Shown here piece after piece: positions 27,607 to 54,022 of a DNA stretch of 64,000 nt; position 1 is the stretch's first letter; the number at the start of each line of letters is the position of its first letter. The notes beneath the pieces were generated by a model. The model ran no database searches, was not told the DNA's origin, and saw only the letters and a list, made by a program, of their open reading frames with translations. Source of the stretch: Candidatus Latescibacterota bacterium. GTDB lineage: Bacteria; Krumholzibacteriota; Krumholzibacteriia; WVZY01; JAKEHA01. The translations under genes were made by a program, and so were the position numbers. The stretch covers positions 2,464,001 to 2,528,000 of the forward strand of contig OY970173.1 of the NCBI GenBank assembly GCA_963707635.1. The letters run 5' to 3'.

Positions 27607-29793
27607 CTAGATCATGCCGGCGCGTTTGCGCAGGAGCCACTCGCAGGAGAGCAGGGCCAGCACCAGCACGAAAAGGAGCGCGCTGGAGCGCAGCACCGTT
27701 TCGGACGTCGTCGGCACGACGCGCGGCGAAACGTCGAGACGATCGGCCACGTCGGCGGCCTGTTCGAGGTTGAGGTAGGCGCCGCCGGTGCGGCGCGCGA
27801 TGCGCTCGAGCTGCGCCCGATCCTGCTGGGTGCGCTGGAATTCGACCGACGTCTCGGACACACGGATTTCGAGCGCCTTCGACTGGATCGCGCGGTCGGG
27901 CAGTTCCGCGCTTCCGCGCACCGTGTAGCGCCCCGGGGGGAGCGCGTCGAGCGCGACCGAGAGCCGGGTGTCGTCGGGACGCTCGCGGCGCATCGGCGTG
28001 CGGTCGAGCGGGGTTTCCGCTCCGTTCGCGCCGACGCGGGCCACTTCGACCCACACCGGCGCGCCGGTGACCGGCTGGAGTTTTTCGTTGAAGACCTCGG
28101 CGTAGAGCTCCGGCGCCTCGCCGGCGTCGAACACGTTCTTGCTCGCCACCAGCACGAAGCGACCCGATTCCTCCCCGCGCGTGAGCACGTCCAGGAGCCG
28201 GGTCATGAGTTCGTCGTACACACCGTTGCTCTCGGCGACGAACTTCCAGCGCCAGAGCGGCCCGGCCGCGATCGCCGCCACCCGTCCCTTGCCCACGGTC
28301 GCGTAGGCGAGCGCGGGAACGTTGCGCCCGCGGACCCCGACCAGCACCTCGGCGGCCGCCGTCGGCGCGACCCCGGCGTAGAAGCCGAGGAGCGGCGCGC
28401 GTTCCTGCCATTCCGATTGCGACAACAGCGGCACCAGGTCGGCGGTGACTGGGTTGGCAGCGGCCCGCGGGGCCGGACCCACGGACGTGTATTGGAGCGT
28501 GAACGAAAAGGGGGCGCTCCCTGCGACCGGCAACACGCCGGCCAGGCGGCCCCACGCCGCGGGAGTCTCGAACAGCGACGAGGGTCCCGGGAGAACCAGC
28601 AACCCGCCGCCGCGGTCGGAGACGAAGCGCCGGATGGCGTCCGTGACCGGTGCGGAGAGAAAGTCCTCGCTCACCGACGCGAGCACCACCGCGTCGGCGT
28701 CGGCGAGCGCCGCGACGAACTGGTCCGGGCGCCGGGCGCGGCCGATCGGGGCCGCAGGACGCCGGGAGGTGACGAACCACTCGTATTCGAGCGCGGGGTC
28801 ACGGGTGATCAACGAGGTGAGGAAGGAAAGCTCCCAGCCCGGAGTGAGGTCGACGATCAGGATCTTCGCGCGCGCCTTCTCGGCGTCGATCACGACCTCG
28901 CGGCGATTGTTGTCCGGCTCGGCGTCGGCTCCGGCCGCGGAGACGGTGAGCACGAACTCCCGGCGTCCCGCGGCCGCGACATGAACCGGGATGCGCACGG
29001 CGGCTTCGACGGCTCCGGCGGCGAGCGAGGTGTCCGCCTCGAACACGCTGCGTTCCCCTTCCGCGAGGCGCAGGTGGATCCGCTTGGCACGGGAACCGGT
29101 CGAGGCGACGGTTGCCGTAACGATGGCACGCGAGGGGGCCCTTACCACGGGGCTGTACGCGACGCCGGCGATACGCACGTCGTCCGGAGCCAGGGTATCA
29201 CCGACGCCGACGGTCCACACCGGCAAGTCGGGCAGCGGCGCGCGTACCAGCGACGGCTCCGTCTCGACCCCGTCTCCAATCGCGACCACGGCACTGACGT
29301 GTTCGCCTTCGTAGCGCGCGCCCAGTTCCCCCAGCGAGCCGACCAGATCGCTTCCCTGGCCGTCCGGGCGCAGGGTATCGCCCGCCTCGGGCTCGAGGTG
29401 GCCGGCGTAGTGAGCCACGTCGACGCGGGCTCCCCGCGCTTCCAGCCTTCGTCCCAGCTCGGCCGCGGTGCGCTCCGCGGCCGCGAACCGGCTCTCGCCC
29501 GCCTTGCCCCCGCCCGCCGGAAGCGACATGCTGGCGGAACGGTCGACCATCACCACCACACGCGCGGGTTCTTCGCGCTGCCCGGTCAGTATCGACCGGG
29601 GGTCCATCAATAGCATTGCCAGAATCACCAGAGCGAGCACCCGGAGGGTGAGCAGCAGGGACCGCATCCGGCCCGCGAGGACTGGGATCGTCCGCCAGTA
29701 CGCGAACAGGGAGACCGCCACGAGCAGCGCCGCCAGGGCGATTACCCAGGCGCGAACCGCGAGGCCGAGGCTGGCGTTGGTTTCGGAAAGCAT
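27607..29793 (-). CDS. Membrane-anchored VWA protein with Ig-like and GATase-like domains
   Basis: N-terminal TMs, MIDAS-like DRSASM, PDNN, FVSDRGGGLL, GKGRV...LWRW and a C-terminal TM with LSCEWLLRKRAG. Confidence 0.75.
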   Translation of the reverse strand: MLSETNASLGLAVRAWVIALAALLVAVSLFAYWRTIPVLAGRMRSLLLTLRVLALVILAMLLMDPRSILTGQREEPARVVVMVDRSASMSLPAGGGKAGESRFAAAERTAAELGRRLEARGARVDVAHYAGHLEPEAGDTLRPDGQGSDLVGSLGELGARYEGEHVSAVVAIGDGVETEPSLVRAPLPDLPVWTVGVGDTLAPDDVRIAGVAYSPVVRAPSRAIVTATVASTGSRAKRIHLRLAEGERSVFEADTSLAAGAVEAAVRIPVHVAAAGRREFVLTVSAAGADAEPDNNRREVVIDAEKARAKILIVDLTPGWELSFLTSLITRDPALEYEWFVTSRRPAAPIGRARRPDQFVAALADADAVVLASVSEDFLSAPVTDAIRRFVSDRGGGLLVLPGPSSLFETPAAWGRLAGVLPVAGSAPFSFTLQYTSVGPAPRAAANPVTADLVPLLSQSEWQERAPLLGFYAGVAPTAAAEVLVGVRGRNVPALAYATVGKGRVAAIAAGPLWRWKFVAESNGVYDELMTRLLDVLTRGEESGRFVLVASKNVFDAGEAPELYAEVFNEKLQPVTGAPVWVEVARVGANGAETPLDRTPMRRERPDDTRLSVALDALPPGRYTVRGSAELPDRAIQSKALEIRVSETSVEFQRTQQDRAQLERIARRTGGAYLNLEQAADVADRLDVSPRVVPTTSETVLRSSALLFVLVLALLSCEWLLRKRAGMI

Positions 29794-29900
29794 TCGGGTC
29801 GCGCGCCGGCCGGCCGCTACCGGCCCGGAGCCACGACAGTATATACACCCGGGAGCGCCCGGCTATGCCGAAAGCGCAAGAGGAAGGGGAATTGTGCCCG

Positions 29901-30278
29901 TCACGCGGACGTGTCCGCCACTTTGAACGCTCCGATCGCGTCCTGCGTGGTCGGATAGGCTTCCAGAATCGAGTGGAACTCGAGCAGCTGGAAGACCTCG
30001 TGGACGTCGCCGGTCATTCCCGAGAGCTTGAGATCCCCGCCGTGGTTGCGGATGCGCTTGATCTCCCCGATGAAGATGCCCCAGCCCGCGGAGCTGATGT
30101 AGTTCACGCCGGAGAGGTCGACGACAATCTTGAAGAGACTCCGGTCGAGCAGCCCGTAGAGGGCGTTCTCCAGCTCGCCGGCGGTCGTGGTGTCGAGGTA
30201 TCCGCTTACCTTGAGGATCGATACCCCGGCGCTGTTGTTGCCCGAGATGACGCTCACAACGATTCCGTCTACAGACAT
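29901..30278 (-). CDS. STAS anti-anti-sigma factor (RsbV/SpoIIAA-like)
   Basis: SGYLDTTTA, VVDLSGVNYISSAGWG, GGDLKL, VFQLLEF. Confidence 0.92.
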   Translation of the reverse strand: MSVDGIVVSVISGNNSAGVSILKVSGYLDTTTAGELENALYGLLDRSLFKIVVDLSGVNYISSAGWGIFIGEIKRIRNHGGDLKLSGMTGDVHEVFQLLEFHSILEAYPTTQDAIGAFKVADTSA

Positions 30279-30324
30279 CGCACCCTTCCTCATCCGGTTG
30301 TATACCCCGCCGGGGCCGCCGCGG

Positions 30325-30726
30325 CTAGTGCCGGCGACCCGACGGGCCTCCCTGCGGACTCGCGTCGCCTGCCACCGCGAAGTCGCGAATTGCGTCCTCG
30401 GTGCGCTCGAACGGCTTCAGAATATTACCGAACTCGAGCAGGTCGAACACCTCTCGCACCTCGGGCGACATGGCCGCGAGTTTGATGTCACCGCCGTTGC
30501 GCCTGATGCGCTTGATCTCGCTGATGAAGATACCCCAGCCCGCCGAGCTGATGTACGTCACCGCGCCCAGGTTCACGACGATCCGGTAGCAGCTCTCGTC
30601 GACGATCCGGGCCAATGTCTCCTCCAGGCCGGACGCATTGGTGGTCTCGATGGTGCCCCGGAGGGTCAGCACGGAAACCGGGTTCGTCGAGCCGGTACGC
30701 TCTTCAGTAATGACCAGTTTTTCCAT
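30325..30726 (-). CDS. STAS anti-anti-sigma factor (RsbV/SpoIIAA-like)
   Basis: RGTIETTNA, VVNLGAVTYISSAGWG, GGDIKL, VFDLLEF. Confidence 0.92.
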   Translation of the reverse strand: MEKLVITEERTGSTNPVSVLTLRGTIETTNASGLEETLARIVDESCYRIVVNLGAVTYISSAGWGIFISEIKRIRRNGGDIKLAAMSPEVREVFDLLEFGNILKPFERTEDAIRDFAVAGDASPQGGPSGRRH

Positions 30727-30761
30727 GAGATCAAGTCCCGAACTGCTTCTCGATGCAAGAG

Positions 30762-31880
30762 CTAGTCCAATAGGGCCTTCAATAGAAAATGTATGCCCTG
30801 CCTGTCGTTACCCGACAACTTGAGGTTCTTCTCGGCCTTCCTGAACCCCGGGTTGCGAACCAGAGCGTGCCGGAACGCTTCATGCGCCTTGTCGATGAAG
30901 AGTTTGCATTTTGCGGCATAGAGCACCCCCAGGTCGTTCTGTATGTCCGCATAACCGGGGTTCGATTCAAGCGCGACCTTGAGCCGTTCGATCAGGGCGT
31001 CGATTTCCTGCTCGGTGAGCTCGTCCGCGCGGAACTTGAGCACCAGGTATATCTCCAGCGACAGGTCCGTCCCGGCCGCCGTGTCCAGTTCCTGGCGAAT
31101 CTTGGCCAGGCGTTCGTGCACCACGTCGTATTGCTCGCTCTCGGTGGCACGCACCGCCTCGCGAAAGTCCTCGGTGTCCAGCTGGGGCTTGAGCTGCAGG
31201 TTGAGCTGCAGGACCCGGCTGAGCCGGGGCCGCAGGTCGCGCGAGAGCTCGTAATCCTGCTTGAGGACGACGTTCAGCGTGAGCGCGAGCGCGATGTTCA
31301 GCAGCGCCGACTGATAGTAACGGTTCAGCTCGAGCGCCCGTTCGAACTCGGCCACGGCCTCGCGGCAACGCTCGAGCCGCAGGTAGGCCGTGCCCAGGTC
31401 ATTATGTAGGTCGGCGTAGTCCGGCGCCAGCTCGATTCCTTTCTGAAACGATCGCAAGGCCTTGTCGTGGTCGCCCAGCGCCAGCAGGCAGTTGCCCAGG
31501 ATCGAATAGCCGCTCGCGTCCTCTAGCCCGAGCTTGATCGAGCGAATCACCTCCGCCATCGCCTCGCGGTAGAGCTTCTGGCGGAACAGCGCCTCGCCGA
31601 GCTTGAGGTGGGCGCGGCCGTCGACGTCCTTCTTCAGACGATCGCGCAGGTCGAGCAGGGACATGAGCCGGGACTTGTACTCGTCGTGCACGCGCCGCAC
31701 CAGCGGGCGCAGCGATTCCGGCGTGAGCGAGGGGTCGTAGGCGACCGCGTGGCGCGAGAGCATCGTGCCCTCGTGGAACAGGGACGTCACCACCGTCCGC
31801 TGCGACGCCACCAGGCTCGACTGGACGTAGTACTTCGTCCCGCTCGAAAGAATCTCGCTACGGTGATCGTAGCCTTCCAT
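30762..31880 (-). CDS. TPR-repeat protein with uncharacterised N-terminal domain
   Basis: PDYADLHNDLG, PGYADIQNDLG, ALELN; RBS GAGAGGT before MEGYDH. Confidence 0.85.
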   Translation of the reverse strand: MEGYDHRSEILSSGTKYYVQSSLVASQRTVVTSLFHEGTMLSRHAVAYDPSLTPESLRPLVRRVHDEYKSRLMSLLDLRDRLKKDVDGRAHLKLGEALFRQKLYREAMAEVIRSIKLGLEDASGYSILGNCLLALGDHDKALRSFQKGIELAPDYADLHNDLGTAYLRLERCREAVAEFERALELNRYYQSALLNIALALTLNVVLKQDYELSRDLRPRLSRVLQLNLQLKPQLDTEDFREAVRATESEQYDVVHERLAKIRQELDTAAGTDLSLEIYLVLKFRADELTEQEIDALIERLKVALESNPGYADIQNDLGVLYAAKCKLFIDKAHEAFRHALVRNPGFRKAEKNLKLSGNDRQGIHFLLKALLD

Positions 31881-31907
31881 CGTCGCTACCTCTCTCATCG
31901 CGGTTCC

Positions 31908-31959: not shown

Positions 31960-32232
31960 TCACGCCACGTCGTCCGGGGTCAGCAGCGTGATCGCGATTC
32001 GAATCAGCTCGTCGCGTGACACCTCGCGCCCGCGCTCGGCCAGCCGGGCCCGCACCGCGTCGATGTGCTTGAGCACGGCGGGTGTGAGCCGCACTACCAC
32101 CTCGACTTCCTTGGCGTCGGGTGAGAGCGGCGAGCGGCCGCGAATCAGCTTCGACACCGTGTCGGAGGCGGCTGCCTCCTTCGCGTCCTCGAACGGGTCG
32201 CGCCCCATCGATCGCTTGCGTCGTTCAGGCAC
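31960..32232 (-). CDS. Small ParA-partner protein, putative ribbon-helix-helix
   Basis: Overlaps the parA stop; basic N-terminus RRKRSMGRDPF; C-terminal VVVRLTPAVLKHID...VSRDELIRIAI. Confidence 0.65.
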   Translation of the reverse strand: MPERRKRSMGRDPFEDAKEAAASDTVSKLIRGRSPLSPDAKEVEVVVRLTPAVLKHIDAVRARLAERGREVSRDELIRIAITLLTPDDVA

Positions 32233-32962
32233 GGGACAACACTTCCTCCGTCAACTGGTAGTAGTCGAACGCCCCGCGCGACATGGGCGAATACTCGAAA
32301 ATGGTCTGGTTAAAGCTCGGTGCCTCGCGCAGCGACGTATTCACCCGGATCACGGTCTTGAAGACGAGATCCTTGAACCGGTCGCGGAGCGTGTCCAGCA
32401 CGTCGATCGACAGTCGGGTGCGCCCGTCGTAGAACGTGGGCAGGATGCCGAGGATCGAGGTCTGGCGCGTCGAATTGTCGTTGATCTCGTCGATGATCTG
32501 CATGGTCTGGCGCGCGCCCGCCTGCGCCAGGTAGTCCATGCTCACCGGGATGATCACCTGGTCGGCGTACACGATCGCGTTGATATTGATGAGATTCACC
32601 GTCGGCGAGCAGTCGCAGATCACGACGTCGCATCCGCGCAGGTTGCGAAGCGCCATGTCGAGACGCCGCTCGCGGCTGGTGCGCGACGCCAGCACCATCT
32701 CGATCTCGGCCAGGTCGCGCCCGCCGGAATCGATGACGAACAGGTTCTGCCGGGCCTCGATCACGTCGACCTCGCCGTACTGGAGCAGGTCGCACAGCGT
32801 GCGCTGCCCCTTCAGGTCGAACGCGATGGCCACGTTGCGCTGTGGGTCGCAGTCGACCACCAGCACCTTCATGCCGCACAGGGCCAGCCCATGGGCGAGG
32901 TTGATGGCGGTGGTCGTCTTCCCGGTTCCGCCCTTGGACGTGATGATGGCGATCTTCCTCAT
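32225..32962 (-). CDS. ParA/Soj-family ATPase (orphan)
   Basis: Deviant Walker A KGGTGKTTT, DCDPQ, ICDCSP, IRVNTSLREAPS. Confidence 0.93.
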   Translation of the reverse strand: MRKIAIITSKGGTGKTTTAINLAHGLALCGMKVLVVDCDPQRNVAIAFDLKGQRTLCDLLQYGEVDVIEARQNLFVIDSGGRDLAEIEMVLASRTSRERRLDMALRNLRGCDVVICDCSPTVNLININAIVYADQVIIPVSMDYLAQAGARQTMQIIDEINDNSTRQTSILGILPTFYDGRTRLSIDVLDTLRDRFKDLVFKTVIRVNTSLREAPSFNQTIFEYSPMSRGAFDYYQLTEEVLSRA

Positions 32963-35900
32963 GCCGCGTCGTCGTCCTCGTCGCCGTCGTCGGCTTGCTC
33001 CTGCTCTGAACCGCCGCGATCGCGCAGCTGCTTGCCGTACTTCTCCCACCCGAGCGCGCGGAGCTTGTGGTCGCGGTCCACGTTTCGGTCTGTCACGGCC
33101 GAGTCGATGTCGAGATCGCCGGGCGTCGCCTCGTCGCCGCCGGCGTCGGCGAACTTGCCGCGGCCGAAGACCGGGGGCTCGTGGGGGGCCTCCGGCGGCG
33201 GACTCCCGTCGCGTGGCGTGCGGATGCTCGGGGCGCTATCCGCCGGTTTCCGGGTCGGCCGGACGGCCGGCGCGTCGGCTGGCCGGCCCGGCAGGGTCGC
33301 CGCACCCGGTCGCTCGCCCAGCACGTCGTCCAGCCCGTCCGCGTGCGTCTCGGGAGCTGCCGGGGCCACCGGCCTGGGCGGCCTGGGCGGCGGGCTGGCG
33401 GCAGGTTCCCCGGGACGCTGCTCGCGCACCGCCGCCACCGCCTCCGCGCGGGTGGCGAAGGCCGAAATGAAGGTCCGAAATTCGAGGCACGCGAACACGT
33501 CGGCCAGGTCGGTCCCCATGCCCGCCAGCGCCACCGCGCCGGTGGCCTCGAACGCGCGCGCGAACTGCCCCCACCCGCTGCTCGAGATGTACTCGACGCG
33601 CGTCAGGTCGAACACGATCGCGCGCGGAGCGCGCGCGAGCTCGCGCGAAAGCTCGTCGGACAAGAGCGACACCGCGGTGGTCTCCACCACGCCCGCGAGC
33701 GTGGCCACGCGCACTCCCTCGTCGCCGTCGCTCCATTCGAGGTCCATCCCCGGCGTGCTCGCGAACGAACGCCCGCGGGCCGTCTCCTCGGCGGCGGCCG
33801 CCGCCGGGGGCTCGTCCGCGATGGGCGCCGCCACGCGCCGGAAATCGTCGATCGCGTCGGCGAACATGTCGAAGGACGCGAGCACGATGTTGAACCCGAG
33901 CATGGTGAACACGTAGTACACGTCGGGGTCCATGCCGAAGAGTTTGATGTCCCCGCCCGCGCGGCGCACCTCGCGCAGGCGCTCGGTGAACACGCCCCAG
34001 CCGCCGCTCGACACGTACTCCACGAACGTCATGTCGACGACGACCCGGTTGCGCCCGCCCGCGAGCACCTGGTCCAGCGCGGCCCGGAGCCGCTCGGCGC
34101 TCACCGTGTCGATGATGCCCTTGAGCTGGAGCACCGCGATCTCTCCGCGTTCGCCGACGGTGGTGGCTTCGATGCGCAGGCTCTGCCATTCCATCGACGC
34201 CCCCGCCGGGGTCCCGCCCGTGTCGATGCCGTGCGACGACGCCATCGTATCGGCGCCCAGGTCGCGCCGGACCGGAGGCGCGCTGACGCGCCGTTGCTCG
34301 GGCGGGAGTGCCAGGTACGCGCGCGCTTCCGCGAGGCCGGGAAACGCACGCAGCACGTCGGCGAACCCGAGCAGCTCGTACACGTCGAACACCTCGGTGG
34401 TCATCCCGCACAGCACGATGTCGCCGCCGTGGTCGCGGAGCCCGCGCACTTCGCCGACGAACAGCCCCCACCCGCCGCTCGACACGTAGGATGTCTCGCC
34501 GAGGTCGACGACGATGCGCAGTGCGCCGGCCACGATCAGGTCATGCAGCTTGCGCTCGAGCGCGGACGAAGACGACGAATCCAGGTGCCCGGCCAGCCGC
34601 ATCTCTGTGATGCCGTCGGACGACGAAACCGCGATGCCCACGCCCTCGACCCGCTCGGTGATCTCGGCCGGGAGCGGCGCGCCGTCCGGCGCGGACGCGG
34701 GGATCGCCGGGGGCGCGACCCCCGGGATCTCGCGCAGGAGGTCGTCGACCAGGTCGCGGCGCGGCGCGGGTATCGGCTCCGCGCCCGGCACCTCGGGCGC
34801 CTCACGCCGCAGGCGGTTGCGGCGCAGGTAGTCGAGGCGGAGGTCTTTGGTATTCAAATTGAGCCGCTTGAGCTCCTCGTACACCATGCGCTCGGAAATG
34901 TGCTGCGACGGGTCACGGTCGCGGTTGTACTCCTCGGTGATGCGCTTGGCACCGAAATCGGGGTTGGCGGCGATGGTGCGGATGATCGCCTTGCGCGCCT
35001 CCAGGCTCACGCGCTTCAAGCTGACGTCGTCGCGCAGGATGTCGTTGCGCAGGCCCCGCTCGCCCATGGTTTCCAGCCGCTTCTTGTACCGGTAGAAGGT
35101 CGCCGGGGAGACCCGCATCTGCTGGCAGGCATCCTTCACACTCATGCCCTGCAACTCGACCATGTCGATCAGCTTCTTGCGAATGTCGAAGAGCACGTCG
35201 TCCGCCGTCATCTTCTCCTTCACCGCCACGACGGTGATGTCGTCGCTCTGCGGGTAATCCAGCGTGAAGCGCTTGATGTCCAGATCCAGCTTGGCGATGA
35301 ATTCCTCGGGCGAGAGGTAGCCGTGGGTCTTCACCATGTCCAGCAGGCGCTCTTCGCCGTACTGCTCGCGGCGCTCGTTCATGGCCTCGGTCACGCCGTC
35401 GGTGTAGATGACGAGCATGTCGTCCTTCTTGAGGCGGACCTTCTCGACGCTGATCGAGCGGCGGAACAGCGATTCGTCCGGCAGGCTGATGCCCACCGGG
35501 AAGCCGCGCGGGTTCAGGAAGAACGTCTCCCGGGTCTCGTGGCGGTAGAGAATCATCGGGTTGTGGCCCGCGCTCGCGTAGCTGATCACGCGGTTCTTGG
35601 AATCCAGAATGACGTAGAACATCGTGACGAACATGCCCTTCTTCATGTCGTCGGTCACGAAGGCGTTCATCTTCGACATCACGTCGCTGGCGTTGCGGTT
35701 GCCGCGGGCCTCCATGCGCAGCGCGGTCCGGATCATGGTCATGACCAGCGAACCCGGCACGCCCTTGCCGGACACGTCGGCGACCACCACCCCGATGGTG
35801 TCGTCGTCGACCTGCACGAAGTCGTAGTAGTCCCCGCCCACCTCGGCCGCGGCCTGGTAGAGCGGCGCGATGTCGTAGCCGCTGATCTGCGGGCGGCGCC

Positions 35901-37217: not shown

Positions 37218-39101
37218 CTAGCGCTGCCCCTCGACCTTGCGCACGCGCTCGCGCGCCTCCTCGATGGACCGCTGGACGCTTTCGTTGGTGGGATCGATCT
37301 CGAGGATCTTCTCCCATTCCGCGATCGCCTGCGCGTACTGGTCCCTGGAGAAGAACTGCATGCCGGCCAGGTAGAGCTCGCGCACCCGCGACTTCTCGGC
37401 GTCGGTGAGCGGCGTGGTGCGCCGCTTGGTCAACGCCATGAGTTTCTTGGCGTCGGCGTGGTCGGGCTGCAGAGTCAGGAGCTCGCGCAGGTCGGTCATG
37501 GCGCCCTGGTAGTTGCCAGCGTTGTACTTGGTGAGCGCGTCGTTATACAGCGTGACGATGCGGAGCTTGCGCTGCGAGGCCGCGTAGTCCTGGCTAACCG
37601 ACTCGATCTGCTTGCGGATGCGCGCGATCGACGTGCGGGCATTCGCGTTGTCCGGTTCGTATTGCTGCACGTTGTTCCACTCCGCGATCGCCTCGGTCAG
37701 GCGGCCGTCGCGTTCTAGCTGCTGCGCGCGTTCGGAGTGCGCACGGATCCGCTCGTTGATCTTCGCATTGGTTTGATCCAGGTAGTCGTGGGCGCCCACG
37801 TTGAGCGAATCGATCGCGAGGATCGCGTGCCACTCGGTGCGCGCGCCGATCATGTCGCCCTCGTTGAACAGGTCGAGCCCGCGGGCGAAGCGCGTGCGAA
37901 TCACGGCCTGGTTCCCCAGGTCCCGCACCGCCGCCGCCTGCTGGGCCAGCACCTGCTCGCGCGCCGCGTCGCGGGCCGCGGCCGCCTCCGCGTCGTCGGG
38001 CACGAATTCGAGGACGATCAGCCACTGGTTGAGGGCTCCGGCCCAGTCGTCGCTCGCCTCGAGCGCGCGCGCCTTCTCGCGGTGGGCGTTGATTCGCGTC
38101 TCGAAGGTGCGCTGGATGAGCAGCCGCTCGTCCTCGGCGCGCTGCGCCTCGATCGCCTCGCGCTTCTCGTCGAGGGTCTGGCCGAAGCGGCCGGTGAAGG
38201 TCACGGCCTGGTTCGAACCGCTCTCGTCACGCGAGTAGAATGCATAATCCACGCCGTAGTTGAACGCCCCCACGCCGAGCCCGAACGTGGGCGTGTCGTC
38301 GTCGAATCCGACCCGCAGCGCGACCAGCCGCGAGAACACGTACTCGGCGCCGGCGTGGAAGCGCCCGTCGGCACGCTCCGGGAGATCGTACTGCAGCATG
38401 AGCCGGAGCGCGGACCCGTTGTCGAACCTGCGCGTGTACCCGGCGCCGGCCAGGATGGTTCGATCAACCGTGTCGTCCTCGAGGTCGAGCTTGTACTGGG
38501 CGCCCACGATGTCCTGCAGGTTCACTCCCAGGGAAAGCGATCGCGCCCCGTCGGGTATGTAGCGGAAGCCGATGTCGACGCCGGGCGCCGTGCTGCTGAA
38601 CGGATCCACCTGCTGGCGGCTGATCTTGAAGGTCGCCCCCGCGGCCAGATTCCCGAACATCCACCCGAAATGGCGCTCGGCCGCGTAGGAGATGAGGAAC
38701 TGGCTCTCGCTGGCGTTACCTTCGCCGAGCGGGCGGCTGAACTCGTCGTACAGATCAAAGGTGGTGCCGACGTTCATGTAGCCCACGCCGAATGCGCCCG
38801 CCGAGAGGGTCGGGTAGACGAAGCCGAAGTAGGTATAGCCCGCCCCGGTGAACTCCCCGTAGAGCGGCATGTACATCGCCATGAACTGCATCGACTGCAC
38901 GTTGCGCAACGACGCCGGGTTCCAGTACACCGAGCTGGCGTCGTCGGCGAGGCTCACGAATGCCCCGCCGAGACCGATCCCACGCGACCCGGCGCCCAGC
39001 TTGAACGTGCTCGCGGTGCCGCCGTCCTGCGCGAAGGTGGGCGTCGTCAGCGCGACGAGCGCGGCGAGCAGCGCAACGATCACAACGCTCTGGTTTCTCA
39101 C
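37218..39101 (-). CDS. PorV-like beta-barrel fused to a C-terminal TPR/coiled region
   Basis: GTG start overlapping the upstream stop; signal peptide; GAGSRGIGLGGAFVSLADDASSVYWNPASL; FHAGAEY...LRVG...DYAF; TPRs (AIAEWEKILEIDPTN). Confidence 0.82.
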   Translation of the reverse strand: MRNQSVVIVALLAALVALTTPTFAQDGGTASTFKLGAGSRGIGLGGAFVSLADDASSVYWNPASLRNVQSMQFMAMYMPLYGEFTGAGYTYFGFVYPTLSAGAFGVGYMNVGTTFDLYDEFSRPLGEGNASESQFLISYAAERHFGWMFGNLAAGATFKISRQQVDPFSSTAPGVDIGFRYIPDGARSLSLGVNLQDIVGAQYKLDLEDDTVDRTILAGAGYTRRFDNGSALRLMLQYDLPERADGRFHAGAEYVFSRLVALRVGFDDDTPTFGLGVGAFNYGVDYAFYSRDESGSNQAVTFTGRFGQTLDEKREAIEAQRAEDERLLIQRTFETRINAHREKARALEASDDWAGALNQWLIVLEFVPDDAEAAAARDAAREQVLAQQAAAVRDLGNQAVIRTRFARGLDLFNEGDMIGARTEWHAILAIDSLNVGAHDYLDQTNAKINERIRAHSERAQQLERDGRLTEAIAEWNNVQQYEPDNANARTSIARIRKQIESVSQDYAASQRKLRIVTLYNDALTKYNAGNYQGAMTDLRELLTLQPDHADAKKLMALTKRRTTPLTDAEKSRVRELYLAGMQFFSRDQYAQAIAEWEKILEIDPTNESVQRSIEEARERVRKVEGQR

Positions 39102-45100: not shown

Positions 45101-48100
45101 CGGCGTGATACCCGACACGGCGATCAAGCCCTGCGACTGCACGAGCACGCTTCCCAGCCCCGAAGACGAGACGGACAGCGCGCGCGCACTGTTGCTCTCC
45201 ACACCCGCGGTGGCCACGTCGACCATGGTCGGCCCGGTCACGCTGCCCGACTGCGTCACGTCGAACACCATCGTGTCCACTTCGCCTCCGGAGAGCACCG
45301 TCCCGCCGCCCACGAGCGCGGGCCGCACAGTGGATACCCAGCCGGCCGCCGGCGAGAACACGAGCCGCGACGTGGGTCCGGCGAGCGTGAGCACGACGTC
45401 GCTCCCGCCGGTGTTACGCACCGCGGCGCGCACCTGGAACGTCTTGCTCATCCCCTGCGTCACCTTCGGCTGCGACGGAATCACGGCGTTGAACGTGACC
45501 GCCGCCGGAGACTGGACCAGCAGGTTGCCCTTGCCGCCGAGGTTGGTGTCGGCGAACAGCGGCTGGCTGGTGTTGACGTCCTCGACCTCGAGCGCGCCCT
45601 CGATGGTCATGTTCCCGACCGTGGTCGCGTTGCCGGTGTTGTCCGAGACGTTGAACACCACCGTGTCGACGTCGCTGCCGGTGAGCAGCGTCCCTCCGGA
45701 AAAGGCCGCCGGGGTGGAGACCACGAATTGATTGGTACGGTCGACGCCGGCGTGGATGAAGCGCAGCGTCGCGGCCGTGAAGGTGACGTTCGCCCCGCCG
45801 TTGTTGGCCACCACCATGCGCACCTTGATGGGCTTGCCCTGGTCCTGGGTGAACAGCGGCTGCGACGGGATCATGGAGAGGATGGCGATGTTCGGCGCGT
45901 CCTGGACCAGCACGTTGTCCGCGACTGTGATCAGCTGGCCGAAGGGGAGGCCGTTTTCGAAGCCATTCAACTGGACCTGCGGGACATATGACGCGCTCGC
46001 GATGGATCCGCTGACGGACGTGCCCAGGAATTGCAGCGTGGTGGTACCGGGCGGCAGCGACGTCGGACCCGACGGGTTGAGCGCCGCGGTGAAGGCGCCG
46101 GCGGCGAACCGGATCGTGGTCGTCGCCGGGGAGAGGTTCACGGTGGCAAGGCCGGTGTTCACGAGCTGGACGGTGAACGCGACCGTCGCGGTCTTGCTCA
46201 CCTGGTCCGGGTCCAGCGCGTCGCCGGCCGCCGACGCCACACTCGCCGGCGTCACGACCGACACCGGGCTGCCGGTGAGCAATACGGGCGGCCAGGTGGA
46301 TGGCGCGCCGTTCTCGGTGCCGTGGGCGTCGAGCGTCACCGGATACGAACCGGGCGTGAACGTCCCCGGCACCGCCCGCGGCCGGAACGTCATGGTCTGC
46401 ATCGCGTTCCCGCCGGCGATCGCGTAGTTCTGCGTGGGCGACGCGCTGAACGTGCGCACGCCATCGGTGAAGGTAAGGCGCGTCGTCGTGGAATCCAGGA
46501 ACGCGAGCCCGCCGCCGGTGTTCCGTATCGTCGCCTGGAATGCGTAGATCTTGCCGCGAGAGGCGACCACCGGCGTCAACGTGGACGGCTCATAGGCCAG
46601 GATGGCCGCGGCCACGACTTCAACGGTCGCGCGCGGGTAAGGCGCCACCGCCAGGTCGACCACGGACTGTCCCCCCACGGTGCCGGTCGCAGCAGCATCG
46701 ATGCTGTAGAAACCCAGCGTCGCTCCGGTCTGTACGGTCACCGGGACGTTGAACACGCCGGATGCGCCCGGGCCGAGCGCGAGCCCCAGCTCGGGAGCAT
46801 TGCCGACGATGAACAGACCGGCGGGAATGAAGGTCAAGTCGATGTCGTTGATGGTCGTGCTCTGGGCCCCGTCGTTCTTGACCGTGACGGCGATGCTCGT
46901 CCCATAGCCCCGGCTCACCTGCCCCGACGCCGGCACGATGCCAGTGATTTCGATGTTGGTGACGAGCAGCGAGAGCGCGGGGAGGCTGCAGGCCACGTTG
47001 ACGGGCGCGGTATTCGCGTCCGCGCCGATGAGCGTCGCCGTCGGCGCGTACTGGGCGGTCAGGAAGGCCGGGTCGATGGCGGCCGACGCGAAGGCGAGGA
47101 TCGCGTTGCCGCTGCCCGGCACCAGCTGCTGCGCGGCCAGATTGGCCGAGTAGCTGTGGGTCCCGTCCGTGAACGAAAACGTGGTCGCGGTCGTCAGGTT
47201 GACCGACGTCGGCGACGAGTTATTGACCACCACGCTGAACGCGACCGAACTCCCCGGCACCACGATGGCCGGTGTGGGCGGGGTGTTGCACACCAGCACG
47301 GGCGGCGGCGCGAACGTGATATCGATGGTCCCGCTCGCCGTCCCGGTGGCGCTGGTCATCGTCACCGTCGACACGCCCACCGTGGTGGACGAACGCAGGT
47401 CGAACGTGATGGTGCCATTCGCCGCGATCGTCTTCGGGCTTCCACCCACGATGAAGCCGCCGAGGTTGGCCGACACGTTCACCGACAGCCCCGCCGTTAC
47501 CTGGTTGGCAAACGCGTCTCGAATGACGCCGCTGGTGATGGTCGTGGTCGAGGTGCCGTTGGCCGTGATCGTGGTGCGGGTCGCGGTCGCCGTGATTGCC
47601 CCGGCGGGTGCGGCGGGAACGACCGTCACCGCTTCACCCAGCCCCGTCACCGAGGGGTTGCCGACGGTGGCGGCGCGCACCTGGTAGGTCTGCACCTGGG
47701 TCGCGGTGACGGTCGTGACCGCGACGCCGTTGGACAGAGTCAGCGGGTTGGTGCCGAACACCAGACCGACGCCGGGATCCCCGGAGAGTGCGACCTGCGT
47801 CGCGTCGTCGTCGACGGGGTTGTTGTTGATGTCGTATGCCGTGATGGTGGCGTTCTTCGAAACCCCCGCCGTCGTCGACGACGCATTCATGACGACGGTG
47901 TAGTAGGCGATTCCGCCCGCGACCGTGGTGACGTTGAAGGTCACGCGCTCGCGTGCGGCCGGGGTGCCGTCCAGAATCGTCGCGGCCACCGTGCTAGGCC
48001 CCGCGGTGGTGGACGTGTGCAGACGCGCGACCGCGCGGCCGTTGGCCGCCGACGCGGCGATACCATCCGTCGAGTCGCCCACCGAATCGCGCAGGAACCC

Positions 48101-51100
48101 GCTCGGCGCCGGCGACGACTGGACGAGATACCTCACCGCCTGGCCCGCGACCGGGTTGCCCCACTGGTCGCGCACTTCCGTGCGCAGCGGTTGAGTCACC
48201 CCCACCGGTATCGACGGTGGGCTCGATCCGGCCACGTAGACCACGCGATACGCGGGGCCGTTGGTGACGGTCACTGTCGGGCTGATCCCGGTGGGACCGC
48301 CGCCCTGCGTCTGCGCCCCGACGGTGAACGTCTCCGCGACGGTGTCGCGCACGGTGGTCACGAACTGACCGGCGGCGAGCGTGCCCGAGACCGCGCCCAG
48401 GGTGGCATTCCCGGTGTGCAACACGTCGATAACGGTCGAGTTGTCCTGTGTCCGGTAGTTGTTGTTGGCGTCGCGCGCCTTGATGGTCACCGAGGTCACC
48501 TGGTTGGCGACGAGCGCCGTCGACCCGGTCGTTATCTCGTAGCTCGCGATCGGACCCGCGACCGTACTCACCGTGAAGTTCACCGTCTCCAGGGCCGGCG
48601 GCGCCCCGTCGAGAATGGTCGCGCGCACCAGGTTGGTCCCCGATCACGGTCCCGGTGGTCAGCGTCGTCGACACGTCTCCGGCCGCGTTGGTCGTCCCCG
48701 ACGGCGGTGCCGGCGACCCGCCGCCCTGGGTGACCGCGAACGACACCAGCTGGCCGACGACCGGATTGCCGAACGGATCGAGCACGCGCGCCGTCAAGAG
48801 CCGCGTCGCCCCCGCCACGATCCCGCTCCCATCGCCCGCCACGTTGGTCACGCGGTAGGCGGCGGCGGGTTTGATCTTTACAATGTTGGAGTAGCCTTCG
48901 AAGCTGCCGGCGTCCCGCGCCCGCACGCGCATCAGCTCGGCCACGGTGTACGATTCGTTGACCACCACCGCGCCCGCCACCAGCGTCGCCTGCGTGACCG
49001 ACAGCGGATTCCCGGTGGGGGTCGTCGTGACGTCGTCGACCGCGGTGAGCGTCACCGAGTTGCCCGCCGACGTCACCTTGTTGTTGAAGGCGTCGCGCGC
49101 CTCGATCGAGACGTTGAACGCCGCGCCCGCGATCGCGCTGTCGGCGGCGATCACCGCATAGCTCGCCACCACGCCGGTGTGGGTGACGGTCACGACTCGC
49201 TAGGTCGCCGGTGAGCCCCGCGGCTGCCGCCGCGATATCCCAGCCCCCAGCCGTCGGTCCGCGGCCGTAGACCGTCCGCGAGCCGCCGATCAGGTTGAAC
49301 GTGGTCGTGCCGACGCCGAAGTCGGTGAGGCTGAAGACCAGCGAGCTGCCCGCCTCCGGCGTCAGCGTCACCAGGCTGGTGTTGCCCGTGTCGAGGTTGT
49401 CGCTGCCGTCCAGCGCCTCCACCTTGAACGAAAACGGACTGCCCCGCCGGCGCCGTGCTGGCCGACAGGAACGTGATCTTCAGGTGGGTCGCGCCGCTCG
49501 AGACGGTGTTCACCGCGAACGTCACGCGTTCGCGCGCGAGCGGCGAGCCGTCGAGAATCTGCGCGTTCACCTGGTTCGTCCCCGCGGTCAGCGCGGTGTG
49601 GTAGGTCACGAGCCCGCGCCCGGAGCCGTTGGTGACGACGATGCCGTCGTTGGGATCGCCGTCGGTGTCGGTGAACGACGGTGTGCCGTCCGGCGCCGAC
49701 GCCACGGAGAAGGTGGCGAGCGCGCCGGGGACCGGGTTGCCGTAGAGGTCGCGGACCTCCACCTCCAGCGGGCGCGTCGTCCCCGCGGTGACCCCGCTTC
49801 CGTCGCCGCTGATCTTCACCACGCGGTAGGTGCCCGCGTTGGAAACCGAGACGACCGCGCTGGTGCCGCTCGGCGGTCCCCCGCCCGACTTCTCGGCGGT
49901 GATGGTGAACGTCTGCACGACCGTGTCCCGCACGGTGGTGGCGAACACGCCGTTGGTCAGCACCCCGGTCGCGGCCCCGAACTGCGCGCTGCCGGTCGAC
50001 GAGAGCGTGACCGACGTCGTATTGTCCAGCGTGACGACGTTGTTGCCCGCGTCGTAGGCGGTGATCGTGAGCGGCACCGTCTCGCCCGCGAGCAGCGAGG
50101 TCTGCTGCGGCACCACCGTGAAGTAGGCGATGCCGCCGGCCACGGTCTGTCACGCTGAACTCGACCAGCTCGTCGCTGGGAGGAACGCCGTCGAGGATGG
50201 TCGCGCGCACGCGGTTGTCGCCGGCGACGAGACCGGTGGTGAGCGTGGTGGCGGCGGTCCCGCTCCCGTTGCGTGGCGATCGACGCCGGCAGCACCGACC
50301 CGCCACCCTGGAACGCGACGAATGACACCTGCTCCCCCGCGACCGGGTTGTCGTAGGCGTCGAGCACCTGCGCGGTGAGCACGCGGGTCGCGCCGGCCGC
50401 GACGCCGATGGCGTCGCCGGACACCTTGGCGATGCGCTTGGCGGCCGCGGCGGAAACCGTGACGATGCCGCTCGTCCCTTCCTTGCTCCCCGCGTCGCTG
50501 ACCTTGACGCGGATCGCTTCGGCCTTGGTGTACGACTCACCGACCGTCGCCTGACCGCCAGCCAGGGTCGCACCGGTAACGAGCAGCGTCGACTGGGCGG
50601 GCCCGGGATTGATGTCGTCGATCGCGGCCAGCGTGATCCCGTTCGACGCTCCCACCACCCGGTTGTTGTACTCGTCGCGCGCTTCGATCGAGACGTTGAA
50701 GGTCGCCCCGGCCACGACACTCGCGACGGTAGACACGGCGTAGTCGTCGACGAGGCCGGTGTCGGTGACGATCAAGGGTTCGGTATCCGCGCCCAGTCCG
50801 CCGCCGCTGGTGGTGACATCCCAGTTCCCCGCCAGCGTGCCGAGCGTGTAGACCGTGCGCGCGCCGGAGGCGAGTGTGACCTGGGTGACGGTCGCGCCGA
50901 AATCGGTGAGGCTGAATTGCAGCCCGCTGCCCGCTTCCGGGGTCAGCGTGACGATGGCCGCGTTGCCGGTGTCGACGTTGCCGGTGCCGTCGACGGCCTC
51001 GACCAGAAACTGTACGCTCTGCCCCGCGGGCCGGGTCGAGGGTCCGACGAAGGTGATGCGCAGATTGGTGGCGCCGCTCGCGGTGGTGGTGTAGGTCACG

Positions 51101-53668
51101 TCGCCGACCGACACTTGCGCCACGTTGGCAGTGAACGCGTCGAGCACGTCCGCCAGACGCCGCGCCGGGCGGCGCCTGATAGCGCACCGTGATGCGGCCG
51201 TGGCGTCGGAGTTCCCGCAGCGCGCGGTGGGTTGAGGTGGTGGTCGGGTTGCGGGTCGACCGGGTCTCGGATACCAGCGACCCGTCGGCCGCGTTCTTGA
51301 TGAAAATGTCGACGCGCTCGCCGCTCTTGACGTTGCCGAACGCGTCGGTGAGCGTCGCCGTCACCACTTCGAACGAACTCACCGTGACGCTCTTGCTGCC
51401 CGGCGTGATCACGAGGTTGGCGCCCGGGCCTGCCGTGCCCGTGGCCGTGAAGTCGACGCTGGGCGTGCTTCCGCTCGCGATCAGCGCGCGCAGGCGGTTG
51501 AGCCCCACGATCGTGCCCAGGCGCCAGACATCGCAGTCGATGGTTCCGTCGGCGATGGTGACGCCGGTGCTGTCGACGCCGCCTCCGGCGACCACATCCA
51601 CGGTGCCTCCGCCACCGACGGCGCGAAACGTGACGGTGGCGCCGGAGACGAGGTTATCGAAGGCGTCGCGCACGCGCACCTTCGGCAACACCGCGACCGG
51701 CGTGTTGACCGCCGCCGACTGTCCTGCGCCGGCGACGAGTTCCACCTTGTCCGCGCCGCCGCTGGACACGGTGATGACTTGCGACTGGCCGCTGGCGGCG
51801 CCCTGCACCGCGTTCAACTGAAACAACTCGGCGCGCGTATCGGTGACGCGAAGCGGCGCGACACCGTTGTCACCGGGAGCGAACGTATACGTCGCGTCGT
51901 CGCCTGAGAGATTGACGAGTGTTCCCTGCGCGAGCGGTGCCGCCCACTCGACCACACCATTGCCCACGCCGCCGCTCGTCGTCGAGAGATTCACGGTGCC
52001 GGTGTAGCTGGTGACGACGTGGCCCTGTGCGTCGAGCGCGGTGAGCGTGACCGGCTTGATGGTCCCCGCGATTGCGTTCCCGTCGGGCATCGACCACTGG
52101 AAGCTCGCGATCCCGCCCGCGGTGAAGTTCACCACCGCGGAGTCGGTTACCGCGGTGGCGCCGATCACCGCCTTGACGGTGCGCGTGCCGACGATGGTGG
52201 TCGCCAGGGTTCCTGTCGCCTGACCGCTCCCGTTGGTGACCCCGCCCGGCTGGGTCAGCGTGGCGCCGGCGGCCGGGATGGCGGAGAGCGTCACCGACTG
52301 GCCGGAGACCGGGTTGTTGTTCGCGTCCCGGGCCGTGACCGTGATGGTGCTGGTGGAGGTGCCGTTCGCCGTCACCGGGGTGGTTGCCGCGACCAGGCTC
52401 GCGCCCCCGCTCACCGGTCCCGGCTGGAACGTGACCTGCGCCGTCGGCGTGAGCGCCTGTCCGTTGATGGTCGCCGAGACCGTCACCAGCTGCGCCGTCG
52501 TGTTCGTCACCGACCCGATCGCGCGCCCGTCGGCGCCGGTGGCGCTGCCCGGGTCGGCCTTGTTGGCGTTGCCGGTCACCGCCAGCACGACCGTGTCGCC
52601 CGCCCGCGGGTTGGCAAACGCGTCTCTCGAGGTCACGGTGACGGTGCTCTGGCTGGTGCCGTTGGCGATGACCGGGCCGGTCGCGGAAATGGTCGACACC
52701 GTCGTGCTCAACGGGCCGGGTAGCACGGAGACGGTGGCCACACCGCCGAGCACCGGCGATCCGGAGGTGGTGAGCATGGTGAGCGAATGAGGTGTCCCGG
52801 TCGTCGCGAGTGTCGCCCGGTAGTCGACGCGCACCGAACTCTGCCCGGTGGAGATCACGATGCTCGTAATCGGCGTCGAGTGATTCCCGGGCGAGTAGTA
52901 CGAGCCGTGGGTCGAAAACAAGCCGATGGTGCGATTCGCCGGCACCGCGGTGCGGTTGCCGAAGGCGTCGCGCACGACGATCCGGTACGCGGCGAAGTCG
53001 CCCGCGGTCATGGTGGTGTCGCCGGGAGCCGGATCCAGCGACGACGGGGCGCCCGCGACGACCGTCAGCTGCGGTGAGGTCGCGATGGAGACCGGGGACG
53101 CGCCCGCCGGGTCGGACGCCACCAGAAAGACGTGCACGCCGGTCGCCGTCGCGGCACTCGCCCGCGCGACGGCGCCGCCGGCGTCGTCGCCGTAAATGAG
53201 CGTGAGTGTGTTGCCGGCCGTCAACGTATCGACGTCAATCGTGACGACCTGGCCCCCCACCGTGAGCAGCGGGTTGCCCGTGGGCTCGTTGGTGCCAATG
53301 CTAACGAACGCCTCGGAGGTGGAAGACGAGGTCTGGGGCGCGCTCCATCCGGAGGGAATCGTCACGCGCACGGTGCCGTCGGTGATCGTCTCGGCCGCCG
53401 TGTAGACGATGGTCCACTTTCCGGCCGCACCTGCGGGAACCGATGCCGGCGGCGATATCGTCGCCGTCCCGCTGCCGGGGCCGGCCAGCGCAGGAACAGC
53501 GGCCGCGACCCACGCCATCGAGAGCCCCGCCGCGAGTCCCCGAGAGCACGCGCGGGTGGCGCTGCGACGGGGTCCCCGCCGCGCGGAGCCGGCGGGGTGG
53601 CGCGGCGACAGGACCCGCGCTAGCGGCGACAGGCCCCGCGAAGCTGCTGCGAAAACAGGCATGCTCAT
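39098..53668 (-). CDS. Giant (~4,800 aa) Ig-repeat surface protein with C-terminal FlgD-Ig/T9SS-like domain; split by at least 6 apparent indels
   Basis: Continuous T/V/G/S-rich beta protein across ORFs 50537..53773, 49957..51147, 49368..50720, 49190..50143, 48580..49422, 47994..49193 and 39098..48628. Invasin Big_1-like DxxxNP motifs; CTD HNYPNPF...IYALTGDLV...WDGRNGQGEVVRNGVY. Confidence 0.85.
47930..51100 (-). repeat. Approximately 1.58-kb (about 525 aa) diverged tandem duplication within the giant gene
   Basis: TNLRITF...PAGQS...VEAVDG (near 51060) recurs as THLKITF...PAGQS...VEALDG (near 49490). RATILDG occurs near 50200 and 48620; ILDG..ARERVTF near 49550 and 47970. Confidence 0.75.
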
Positions 53669-53740
53669 TTTTCGAACGGGCGTGCTCGACTTCCTGGGAC
53701 GGCGGCCGGCTGGACCGGGCGGAGAACCCATATCGACGCG

Positions 53741-53756
53741 TGCAACTCCCATGCCC
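53741..53756 (-). promoter_or_regulatory. sigma54 promoter candidate for the giant-protein locus
   Basis: Minus strand GGGCAT-GGGAG-TTGCA has the GG-N10-GC spacing, about 75 nt upstream of the likely ATG. Confidence 0.55.
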
Positions 53757-54022
53757 CACCAGCGGTTCCCCATTTCGGGGCATGACTACCCCGGGCTGGA
53801 GTCGGACTCAATCGGCGGGAACTCCAGCACCGACGCGAGCCGGGATTCCCGGGATGGTAGCAGCCGGAGGCGGAATAGGCAATCCCCGCAAGGGATTAGC
53901 CGGGACGACGGGGAACTGGCGGGAAGGGTGCCAGGGGGCGACCCGACACGGGTCGCTTGACCCAGGCGGCCGGGGCCAGGCCAACGGTTCGTGGCGGGGT
54001 GGACGGGCGGTTTGCCCCGTCG

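Follow-up and report, generated by a model that had tools for sequence, protein, structure and literature searches.

In the genome of a Candidatus Latescibacterota bacterium (Krumholzibacteriota), nine co-oriented genes occupy the minus strand between positions 27,607 and 53,773 of a 64-kb stretch of contig OY970173.1 (hereafter the window), and a preliminary description had proposed that they form a single surface-sensing system spanning the cell envelope. The locus is real and conserved, and both broader and simpler than the nine-gene reading. Judged from sequence, the conserved core comprises three genes and is found more widely than the full set of nine. This three-gene cassette encodes, in order, a cargo with a type IX secretion system (T9SS) C-terminal domain (CTD), a PorV-family outer membrane barrel with a tetratricopeptide repeat (TPR) arm, and a receptor of the arrangement transmembrane helix (TM)-sCache-TM-HAMP. 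We regard it as reasonably probable that this cassette is an outside-in signalling line, with the barrel arm acting on the receptor.

The TPR-armed barrel and its receptor

The barrel gene (37218..39101, minus strand, 627 amino acids (aa)) encodes a signal peptide, an N-terminal plug, a 14-strand barrel and a C-terminal helical stalk leading into the TPR arm, as assigned from NF033709, AlphaFold2 (AF2) and Foldseek. It scores 91.8 bits against the PorV/PorQ family NF033709 (cut-off 90), with TPRs in addition, and only 23.9 of the 250 bits required by the PorV equivalog NF033710, and it is not the porU-linked gene. The genome has a separate PorV-family gene directly behind porU (C1:2,284,683) among its nine PorV-family loci, and the barrel of the locus is therefore a dedicated paralogue. 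The AF2 model (138 rows; predicted local distance difference test 91, predicted template modelling score (pTM) 0.69) shows the plug and 14 strands, followed by a helix of 40 residues that leads into TPR units, and the best Foldseek matches are the chain F barrels of the T9SS translocon entries 8gl6 and 6h3i, followed by FadL. Because the number of strands is even, barrel topology places the C-terminus on the side of the plug, so that the arm is predicted to be periplasmic; the concern that the TPR region might be extracellular and without an interface to the receptor is thus answered by the model as to location only. The terminal TPR (37221..37403, minus strand) is the candidate receptor-binding tip: residues G580, A592, W596 and P604 are present in 94-97% of 94 rows, and even shortened arms keep this unit.

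Two nucleotides downstream lies the receptor gene (32959..37215, minus strand, 1,418 aa), which by Pfam and NCBIfam scans, AF2 and TM prediction encodes an RsbW-type kinase (HATPase_c_2, residues 20-144), TM1, a periplasmic single Cache domain, TM2, HAMP (363-407), a PP2C phosphatase (SpoIIE, 470-666), a tandem helix-turn-helix (HTH) module (679-793), three STAS domains and a tail. Two TM helices flank the Cache fold (sCache_3-type, residues 190-342; 36190..36648, minus strand), which was assigned from the AF2 model, from PF17203 on homologues and from profile matches to the sensor domains of DcuS, WalK and CitA; no conserved charged pocket residues stand out in its alignment. Kinase residues E56, N60, H64, D90, G92, G116 and G118 and PP2C residues D462, D480, D606, D658 and D659 show no substitution in any aligned row (140-143 of 143, with gaps in the others). 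All five STAS domains of the locus, three fused and two separate, carry S-S-[AG]-G-W-G, so that by sequence the elements of a partner-switching module are present: a GHKL serine kinase, a PP2C phosphatase with intact catalytic residues, and a STAS phospho-serine motif.

Our genome collection yielded 75 loci, 61 of them with a fused receptor; four of these start inside the receptor, leaving 57 that could be assessed. A barrel-TPR gene lies directly upstream of the receptor at 55 of the 57, in records titled, among others, Krumholzibacteriia, Bacteroidota, KSB1, Calditrichota, FCPU426 and Spirochaetia; the neighbourhood is thus conserved across phyla, which speaks against homologues scattered through unrelated contexts. 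The giant cargo gene adjoins the barrel in Krumholzibacteria (except at L043), KSB1 and Calditrichota, and giant relatives are found elsewhere in 11 of 12 searched Bacteroidota-type genomes, reaching 6,593 codons. Since the adjacency of barrel and receptor persists where the giant has moved away, these two genes are, on present sequences, the pair that stays together. The barrel occurs in 79 of 86 Calditrichota genomes, where the best 30 loci without exception have the order CTD gene, barrel-TPR, receptor kinase start (30/30). One of these genomes (G192) encodes a giant of at least 3,786 aa, the barrel-TPR, a 1,201-aa receptor and a STAS-HTH protein; as one of its proteins is identical to P0278, which a source names as from Caldithrix abyssi DSM 13497, a cultured organism appears to carry the cassette. 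At L043 and L107 (G027:C1) and at L054 and L108 (G031:C1) the receptor locus is split or without neighbours; both assemblies are single contigs with runs of N, and misassembly may be responsible.

The association was also examined starting from the barrel. Metagenome loci were collected by the barrel N-terminal motif and the best 80 of 450 retained, a similarity-ranked and hence family-enriched set comprising 13 barrels with the TPR tip at their end, 58 plain ones and 9 that are truncated. Of the 13 tailed barrels, 9 are followed by a receptor start, as against none of the 42 plain barrels with at least 1 kb of downstream sequence, and a stricter count demanding a Cache match and at least 1 kb gives 6 of 10; the Fisher p values against plain barrels (1e-7 and 1e-5, respectively) are overstated by kinship. 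A CTD gene lies upstream of 31 of 53 plain barrels in the same set. Conversely, a Cache profile gave 31 matches at E 2e-20 in 20 genomes, of which 28 are just downstream of a barrel-TPR gene, including 9 of the 12 that had no part in building the profile, and a further 14 weaker matches are mostly ordinary kinases or cyclases without a barrel. Inter-protein covariation (mutual information with average product correction; 94 pairs, effective number 57) did not rise above clade-wise shuffles, of which 73 of 100 reached the maximum and 89 of 100 the top-ten mean, and is uninformative. The mirror-distance correlation of 0.55 is expected of neighbours and is not counted as support.

Paralogous cassettes extend the pattern. 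A profile search of 151 Krumholzibacteriota genomes recovered more TPR-tailed barrels, and 40 of the 150 listed matches were fetched, favouring long contigs and spread over families; a nearby PP2C match was known beforehand for 12, and 28 were taken on the barrel match alone. The order CTD cargo, barrel-TPR, membrane receptor is present at 40 of 40, with upstream CTD-ending frames of at least 2,000 codons at 36, and together with the 30 Calditrichota loci a CTD cargo directly precedes the barrel in 70 of 70 cases. The three paralogous cargos that were scanned have DUF11 repeats instead of Big_1/invasin repeats and an unchanged CTD subtype. The receptor output is PP2C at 35 of the 40 loci, with the kinase N-terminal (3), C-terminal, or encoded by a separate kinase or kinase-STAS gene, and HD_5 behind sCache_3 and HAMP at the other five, where both the HD and GYP motifs are present (5/5; L209 has no Cache match at threshold). 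Quick trees built from a subset of 50 among the 94 paired rows (36 of paralogous and 14 of orthologous type) recovered the same deep groups for tip and Cache, and in both trees the three HD-GYP rows included fall inside one 18-row clade with PP2C-kinase receptors (SH-like approximate likelihood ratio test 98 and 99). This nesting indicates that the output was exchanged behind HAMP, possibly once only, while arm and Cache stayed. Paralogous cassettes and swapped outputs tie the barrel arm to the periplasmic domain of the receptor more closely than the preliminary description could have known.

FCPU426-type genomes contain split versions (giant, barrel-TPR, kinase, Cache-PP2C, STAS, kinase, then genes for a methyl-accepting chemotaxis protein (MCP) and PilZ, or for CBS-GGDEF), and other cassettes of this type have the receptor right behind the barrel (L280-L282). 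Two such genomes (G057, G061) have 43-44 PorV-family matches each, with several cassettes in tandem. A histidine kinase gene of about 450-480 aa (HisKA and HATPase) follows paralogous cassettes at L194, L197, L198, L202, L208 and L211 and is a possible STAS target. Behind a CTD cargo and a TPR-tailed barrel, L294:2937-5057, L298:7563-9623 and L327:7696-9654 encode a second partner class of about 650-700 aa that begins with a signal-like segment and has a single TM helix, the middle and C-terminal domains of FliG, and TPRs; a rotor-switch domain would here be coupled to a T9SS-type barrel. At L314:904-6213 a PorV-like barrel with a 500-aa non-TPR extension precedes a CHASE2-PP2C protein, possibly another receptor variant. 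The unit at G000:C1:231,955-241,946 (also L157, L158) combines a CTD cargo of the same subtype, a PorV-like barrel with its own C-terminal FlgD-type immunoglobulin-like (FlgD-Ig) domain, a TPR protein of about 1,030 aa and ExbB/ExbD/TonB-like genes (named by eye), and is a candidate energiser or motility unit; a GldM/N search of such genomes gave no match, nor did it in controls.

The giant cargo and its probable type IX export

The giant surface-type protein (39098..53773, minus strand) overlaps the barrel gene by GTGA (-4) and consists of Big_1/Invasin_D3 immunoglobulin-like (Ig) repeats, as supported by Pfam and by colinearity with a genome of the same genus (G002). It would comprise about 4,800 codons if read through, with an uncertain start between 53,773 and about 53,520. 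Its position, Ig repeats and CTD agree with the preliminary description; it is not, however, an open frame in the assembly, where only the last 3,176 codons (48,628-39,098) are uninterrupted, and six frame changes lie in an internally repeated zone (48640..51230, minus strand) delimited by frame switches in third-position GC content, tblastn frames and relatives' contigs. The frame changes are likely assembly errors, because G002 encodes an intact colinear giant of 4,820 aa (50-64% identity) and the extra base is missing from short-read contigs of relatives both at 50,148/50,150 (two studies) and at 49,435 (one contig); the other four sites are covered by no listed indel. We reject a true pseudogene in view of the intact forms in G002, G020 (3,160 aa) and G026 (4,537 aa).

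The features expected of a T9SS substrate are present, namely a signal-like N-terminus, read by eye on the intact relative in G002, an Ig-like CTD, and SprA in the genome (TIGR04189, 492 bits, cut-off 200). The CTD (39101..39382, minus strand) falls just below the Pfam cut-off for FlgD_ig (26.4 bits against 27) and reaches 34.4 bits in the genome search. The same genome has PorU over cut-off and 107 FlgD_ig matches, and SprA-like matches occur in 25 of 25 distant genomes, 17 of them over cut-off; detection used TIGR04189, PF14349 (SprA_N) having matched no control genome. GldM and GldN were matched in none of five genomes searched, and in none of the control genomes either. With a profile of cassette CTDs from other genomes, which includes a few orthologous giants, the CTD of the giant ranks 1 of 111 CTD-like matches in its own genome and the cargo before another PorV-like gene ranks 2. 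As these two (88 and 83 bits) stand above all others (at most 67), the cassette cargos share, by this ranking, one distinct CTD subtype. A type B CTD/PorP-SprF pairing is not indicated: the barrel has no PorP/SprF match in Pfam or NCBIfam and matches PorV/PorQ instead.

Output and lineage-specific additions

Re-reading of the window sequence bore out the order of the nine co-oriented genes and the four junctions of the first five; beyond those already given, receptor and parA share an ATGA overlap (-4), and parA and its partner overlap by 8 nucleotides if the partner starts at GTG 32232. The remaining gaps after the partner are, in gene order, 61, 35, 49 and 107 nucleotides. Pfam and NCBIfam scans upheld the domain assignments. 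The host genome is a single contig of 3.2 Mb, and the nearest receptor relatives are titled Candidatus Krumholzibacteriia or Latescibacterota. Promoter and terminator scans of the locus returned no promoter-like site and nothing interpretable, and the sequencing runs listed with the locus comprise four DNA runs (shares <0.1) and no RNA run.

Two small STAS proteins (30325..30726, 133 aa, and 29901..30293, 124-130 aa; both minus strand) carry the phospho-site motif YISSAGWG and exceed the TIGR00377 cut-off, in agreement with Pfam and alignment. All 25 distant genomes with the receptor that were searched encode a near-identical orthologue of the second, which in many of them ends in an HTH; the second HTH unit of the receptor is also found C-terminally on cognate STAS proteins of other phyla. 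The tandem HTH module (34837..35181, minus strand) resembles, by family scans and alignment, the N-terminus of IS481/IS630 transposases without the transposase body; against sequences in the PDB it gave only a weak match of TetR-like size (Lin0861). We reject an inserted insertion sequence, as the transposase body is missing and the module is in frame and conserved across phyla. In KSB1-type receptors (L068-L070, L081, L156, L292) the fused STAS domains are replaced by a long C-terminal region ending in TPRs, with lengths of up to 1,990 aa, and some genomes with such receptors have a second STAS-HTH gene elsewhere.

No sigma factor gene had been noted in the window, and indeed none of the 18 sigma-70 region 2 matches of the genome (RpoD, three RpoD-related, and 14 further, mostly of extracytoplasmic function (ECF) size) falls there. 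A SigB/F/G-type sigma factor (TIGR02980) is over cut-off in none of 27 genomes, the best score being 134 of 234 bits in RpoD-sized frames; one of 14 control genomes exceeds the cut-off. An anti-sigma-B/F output of the receptor is rejected on these grounds, and since the 27 genomes hold no such sigma factor the output in this lineage is likely not a factor of the sigma-B/F type. Most likely, phosphorylation of STAS controls either the tandem HTH module or some conserved partner of STAS, and the HTH module, being common to cognate STAS proteins of other phyla, is the best output candidate that the sequences offer here.

The remaining genes separate from the core. The preliminary description had read all nine genes as one system; we reject this, as most homologous loci lack ParA, its partner, the TPR protein and the last gene, and the full order is restricted to part of the Krumholzibacteria. 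By sequence these four genes are lineage add-ons: L040 and L052, of the same order as the window genome, lack ParA, the partner, the TPR protein and the fused STAS domains. The orphan ParA-family ATPase (32225..32962, minus strand, 245 aa; AAA_31 1.9e-38) is about 34% identical to the other ParA of the genome. Its small partner (31960..32232, minus strand, 82-90 aa) has a conserved N-terminal LGRD-x-F peptide and a probable ribbon-helix-helix C-terminus (alignment, Atlas), with weak RHH_1 matches in 13 of 16 homologues (best E 5.6e-4, all below cut-off); it gave only chance matches to PDB sequences and is missing at L044, L047 and L049-L051. A conserved tail motif of the receptor, GW-x2-Y-x3-L (33025..33051, minus strand), co-occurs with a following parA: all 25 loci where parA follows have the motif, and all 37 where it does not lack it. 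Among these rows some genomes appear twice and three rows stem from broken or masked assemblies, so that few events are independent. The co-occurrence fits ParA and its partner being a later addition that likely positions the receptor via its tail. The cytoplasmic TPR protein (30762..31898, minus strand, 372-378 aa) has Pfam TPR matches and no predicted TM, and its N-terminal domain gave no match in an Atlas search. The last gene (27607..29793, minus strand, 728 aa, three TM) has no family match in Pfam or NCBIfam, is kept as a neighbour in Krumholzibacteria only, is separated from the second STAS gene in G002 by a transposase-sized open reading frame, and is probably not part of the core.

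On either side lie further minus-strand genes. The upstream block (54,026-61,722), kept in G002, G012, G020 and G026, comprises two CBM48 lipoprotein-like genes, a CBM48-barrel, an unassigned barrel, a weak PorV-like gene, a FlgD-type protein, a DUF4388 protein with an MshE-type cyclic di-GMP (c-di-GMP) motif (NF053729 over cut-off) and a CDP-alcohol transferase. After the last gene, and kept with it in Krumholzibacteria, a Lamin-tail/FlgD-Ig protein and two unassigned barrel-like genes occupy 23,539-27,430.

Proposed direction of signalling and relation to known systems

Under outside-in signalling, the giant would be exported via the type IX translocon (SprA), handed to its own PorV-like barrel and kept by it on the surface, CTD binding being proposed by analogy with cognate T9SS shuttles. 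The predicted periplasmic TPR arm would touch the Cache domain, and Cache input through HAMP would shift the phosphatase/kinase balance on the STAS serine; in sister cassettes the output would be c-di-GMP turnover, and here ParA and its partner would position the receptor through its tail. The signal would presumably run inward, with load, binding or secretion state of the cargo as the stimulus.

Several observations weigh against this reading. The line from giant to barrel to receptor is drawn from sequence, and the pTM of 0.69 leaves reach and angle of the arm uncertain. The giant is not adjacent at 21 loci: 13 titled Bacteroidota or bacterium, with hflX upstream, seven of FCPU426 type, with rnr in that place, and L043. 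Other genes follow 4 of the 13 TPR-tailed barrels in the forward set (L294, L298, L327, L351), and such barrels also occur without this receptor at 5 of 8 fetched short-tailed FCPU426-type loci and at L146; receptors without a barrel exist at L054, L081 and L272. The Cache domain is by sequence kin to the small-molecule sensors DcuS and CitA. Most loci come from related lineages and the counts are not independent; the HD-GYP swap may be a single event, and congruent tip and Cache trees are expected of any neighbouring genes.

Much the same linkage would arise if control ran from the inside out, the receptor reading a cytoplasmic state and, via Cache and TPR arm, setting whether the barrel holds or releases the giant, in the manner of LapD/LapG/LapA. 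Release control would be useful for so huge and costly a cargo, and HAMP-Cache receptors such as LapD can signal outward. We judge this quite improbable, as the outputs look catalytically intact (kinase and PP2C motifs invariant, HD and GYP in 5/5) rather than like degenerate sensors, and it is the intact motifs that lead us to favour outside-in signalling over it. The genes downstream also include STAS substrates, a GGDEF cyclase, PilZ, an MCP and histidine kinases, and no protease gene was seen among cassettes whose genes were listed. A further reading, to which we give a comparably small probability, makes the receptor a secretion monitor whose Cache domain binds the cargo CTD, or distinguishes an empty from a loaded barrel, and so reports export status rather than surface contact. 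Precedent exists in Porphyromonas, where the PorA CTD activates the sensor kinase PorY in the periplasm (PMC12152298), and the cassette CTDs form their own subtype. A CTD ligand would need no TPR arm, yet the receptor tracks TPR-tailed and not plain barrels, and barrel and receptor stay paired where the giant has moved away.

That the genes are merely co-regulated, the barrel anchoring its cargo (with the TPR on the wall or another envelope protein) and the receptor sensing a small molecule to control the operon, is in our view rather unlikely. A cargo followed by a PorV-like gene is general, occurring with the 31 of 53 plain barrels and several times in the own genome, the Cache relatives DcuS and CitA bind carboxylates, and orphan receptors and receptor-less TPR barrels exist. 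Co-regulation leaves unexplained why barrel and receptor, not cargo and barrel, stay paired at 20 broken-up loci, why 0 of 42 plain barrels have the receptor and why members of the Cache family occur almost nowhere else, and the Cache alignment lacks the conspicuous conserved charged pocket residues. Finally, the barrel might be an importer of the FadL type that passes a hydrophobic ligand on to the receptor through its TPR, and the giant would then be incidental. FadL structures come next after PorV in the Foldseek ranking, Bacteroidota-type loci have a FadL-type porin and a GDSL lipase behind the receptor, and Treponema has FadL-like barrels with C-terminal TPR bundles for which substrate passage to a periplasmic transporter is proposed (PMC8407342). 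PorV nonetheless ranks above FadL by fold, the NF033709 cut-off is exceeded and a CTD cargo directly precedes the barrel at all 70 loci, so that an importer is a very remote prospect.

Each part of the cassette has a described counterpart; the cassette itself is undescribed in the literature searched, no description having been found in open-access main texts (supplements aside). In SprB/SprF of Flavobacterium johnsoniae and PG1035/PorP/PorE of Porphyromonas gingivalis, too, the gene for a large CTD cargo is directly followed by that for its own barrel, and the barrel is proposed to be a surface anchor linked to a periplasmic protein (PMC12618676, PMC9143113). Those barrels are of the PorP/SprF family and go with a type B CTD. 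Here, by contrast, a PorV/PorQ barrel goes with a CTD that is Ig-like (FlgD), and the periplasmic part is fused to the barrel; the text consulted on those pairs describes no inner-membrane signalling receptor. The Treponema pallidum proteins TP0548, TP0859 and TP0865 share the 14-strand barrel, N-terminal hatch and presumptively periplasmic C-terminal TPR bundle (PMC8407342), whereas they are proposed nutrient importers with a short three-helix tail, and the text available mentions no link to cargo or receptor. In PorA-PorXY-SigP a T9SS cargo also feeds a membrane sensor, although there the CTD binds the histidine kinase directly in the periplasm, the output is an ECF sigma factor and, in the part consulted, no barrel arm figures (PMC12152298).

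On the receptor side, the top Foldseek match is Rv1364c of Mycobacterium tuberculosis (PDB 3ke6) and the second a Sia structure (PDB 6k4e). Rv1364c combines sensor, PP2C, kinase and STAS on one polypeptide, in the order PAS-PP2C-kinase-STAS, and is cytoplasmic and regulates SigF (PMC9138534). The order here is instead kinase-TM-Cache-TM-HAMP-PP2C-HTH-3xSTAS, with two TM helices and no SigB/F/G-type sigma factor. In SiaABCD of Pseudomonas aeruginosa a PP2C phosphatase and a kinase balance STAS-type phosphorylation by partner switching, tied to a diguanylate cyclase and aggregation (PMC7647112). The likeness extends to sister cassettes that adjoin GGDEF or PilZ genes or carry HD-GYP; however, the receptor scores only 68.4 of the 700 bits required for SiaA (NF038263), its kinase is fused and its motif has serine, no GGDEF was found among the window genes scanned, and Sia has neither an outer membrane barrel nor a T9SS cargo. 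SypE is a soluble response regulator with a receiver domain, whereas the input here is a membrane-spanning Cache-HAMP, and HTH and fused STAS domains are added. SypE/SypA of Vibrio fischeri resembles the receptor in that a serine kinase and a phosphatase in one chain act on a STAS protein; SypA, the target of which is not a known sigma factor, and SypE together control biofilm (PMC8256260).

Two further parallels concern coupling across the envelope: FecA/FecR/FecI, in which an outer membrane protein is coupled across the periplasm to an inner membrane regulator, and LapA/LapD/LapG, in which an adhesin is tied to a Cache/HAMP receptor. Unlike these, the cassette genes include no TonB-dependent transporter, FecR-type anti-sigma or ECF sigma factor, and no type I secretion system or LapG protease was seen in the cassette.

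A wider reading, which we advance tentatively and at somewhat less than an even chance, is that T9SS shuttle-type barrels with periplasmic arms serve as receptors at the cell surface: each would report on the giant cargo tethered to it, passing its state to inner-membrane effectors that can be exchanged for one another (PP2C/kinase/STAS, HD-GYP, perhaps a CHASE2-PP2C or FliG-domain protein), in several copies per genome and in many phyla related to the Fibrobacteres-Chlorobi-Bacteroidetes group; here the switch would need no sigma factor, acting on DNA directly via an HTH of transposase origin, and a ParA of its own would position it, and the whole would be a categorically new class of trans-envelope signalling. 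The cassette is modular at both ends, and a single interface, between the terminal TPR and the Cache domain, both small and soluble, decides the signalling question. It is also a conserved case of a partner switch without a sigma-B/F-type target, the target being an open question for SypA-like STAS proteins. If the cassette does signal in this way, the type IX secretion machinery would gain a sensory role, and a surface-sensing route would be at hand for widespread, mostly uncultured phyla with surface proteins of 2,000-6,600 residues; should the link between arm and receptor be shown, the cassette would be a new kind of system.

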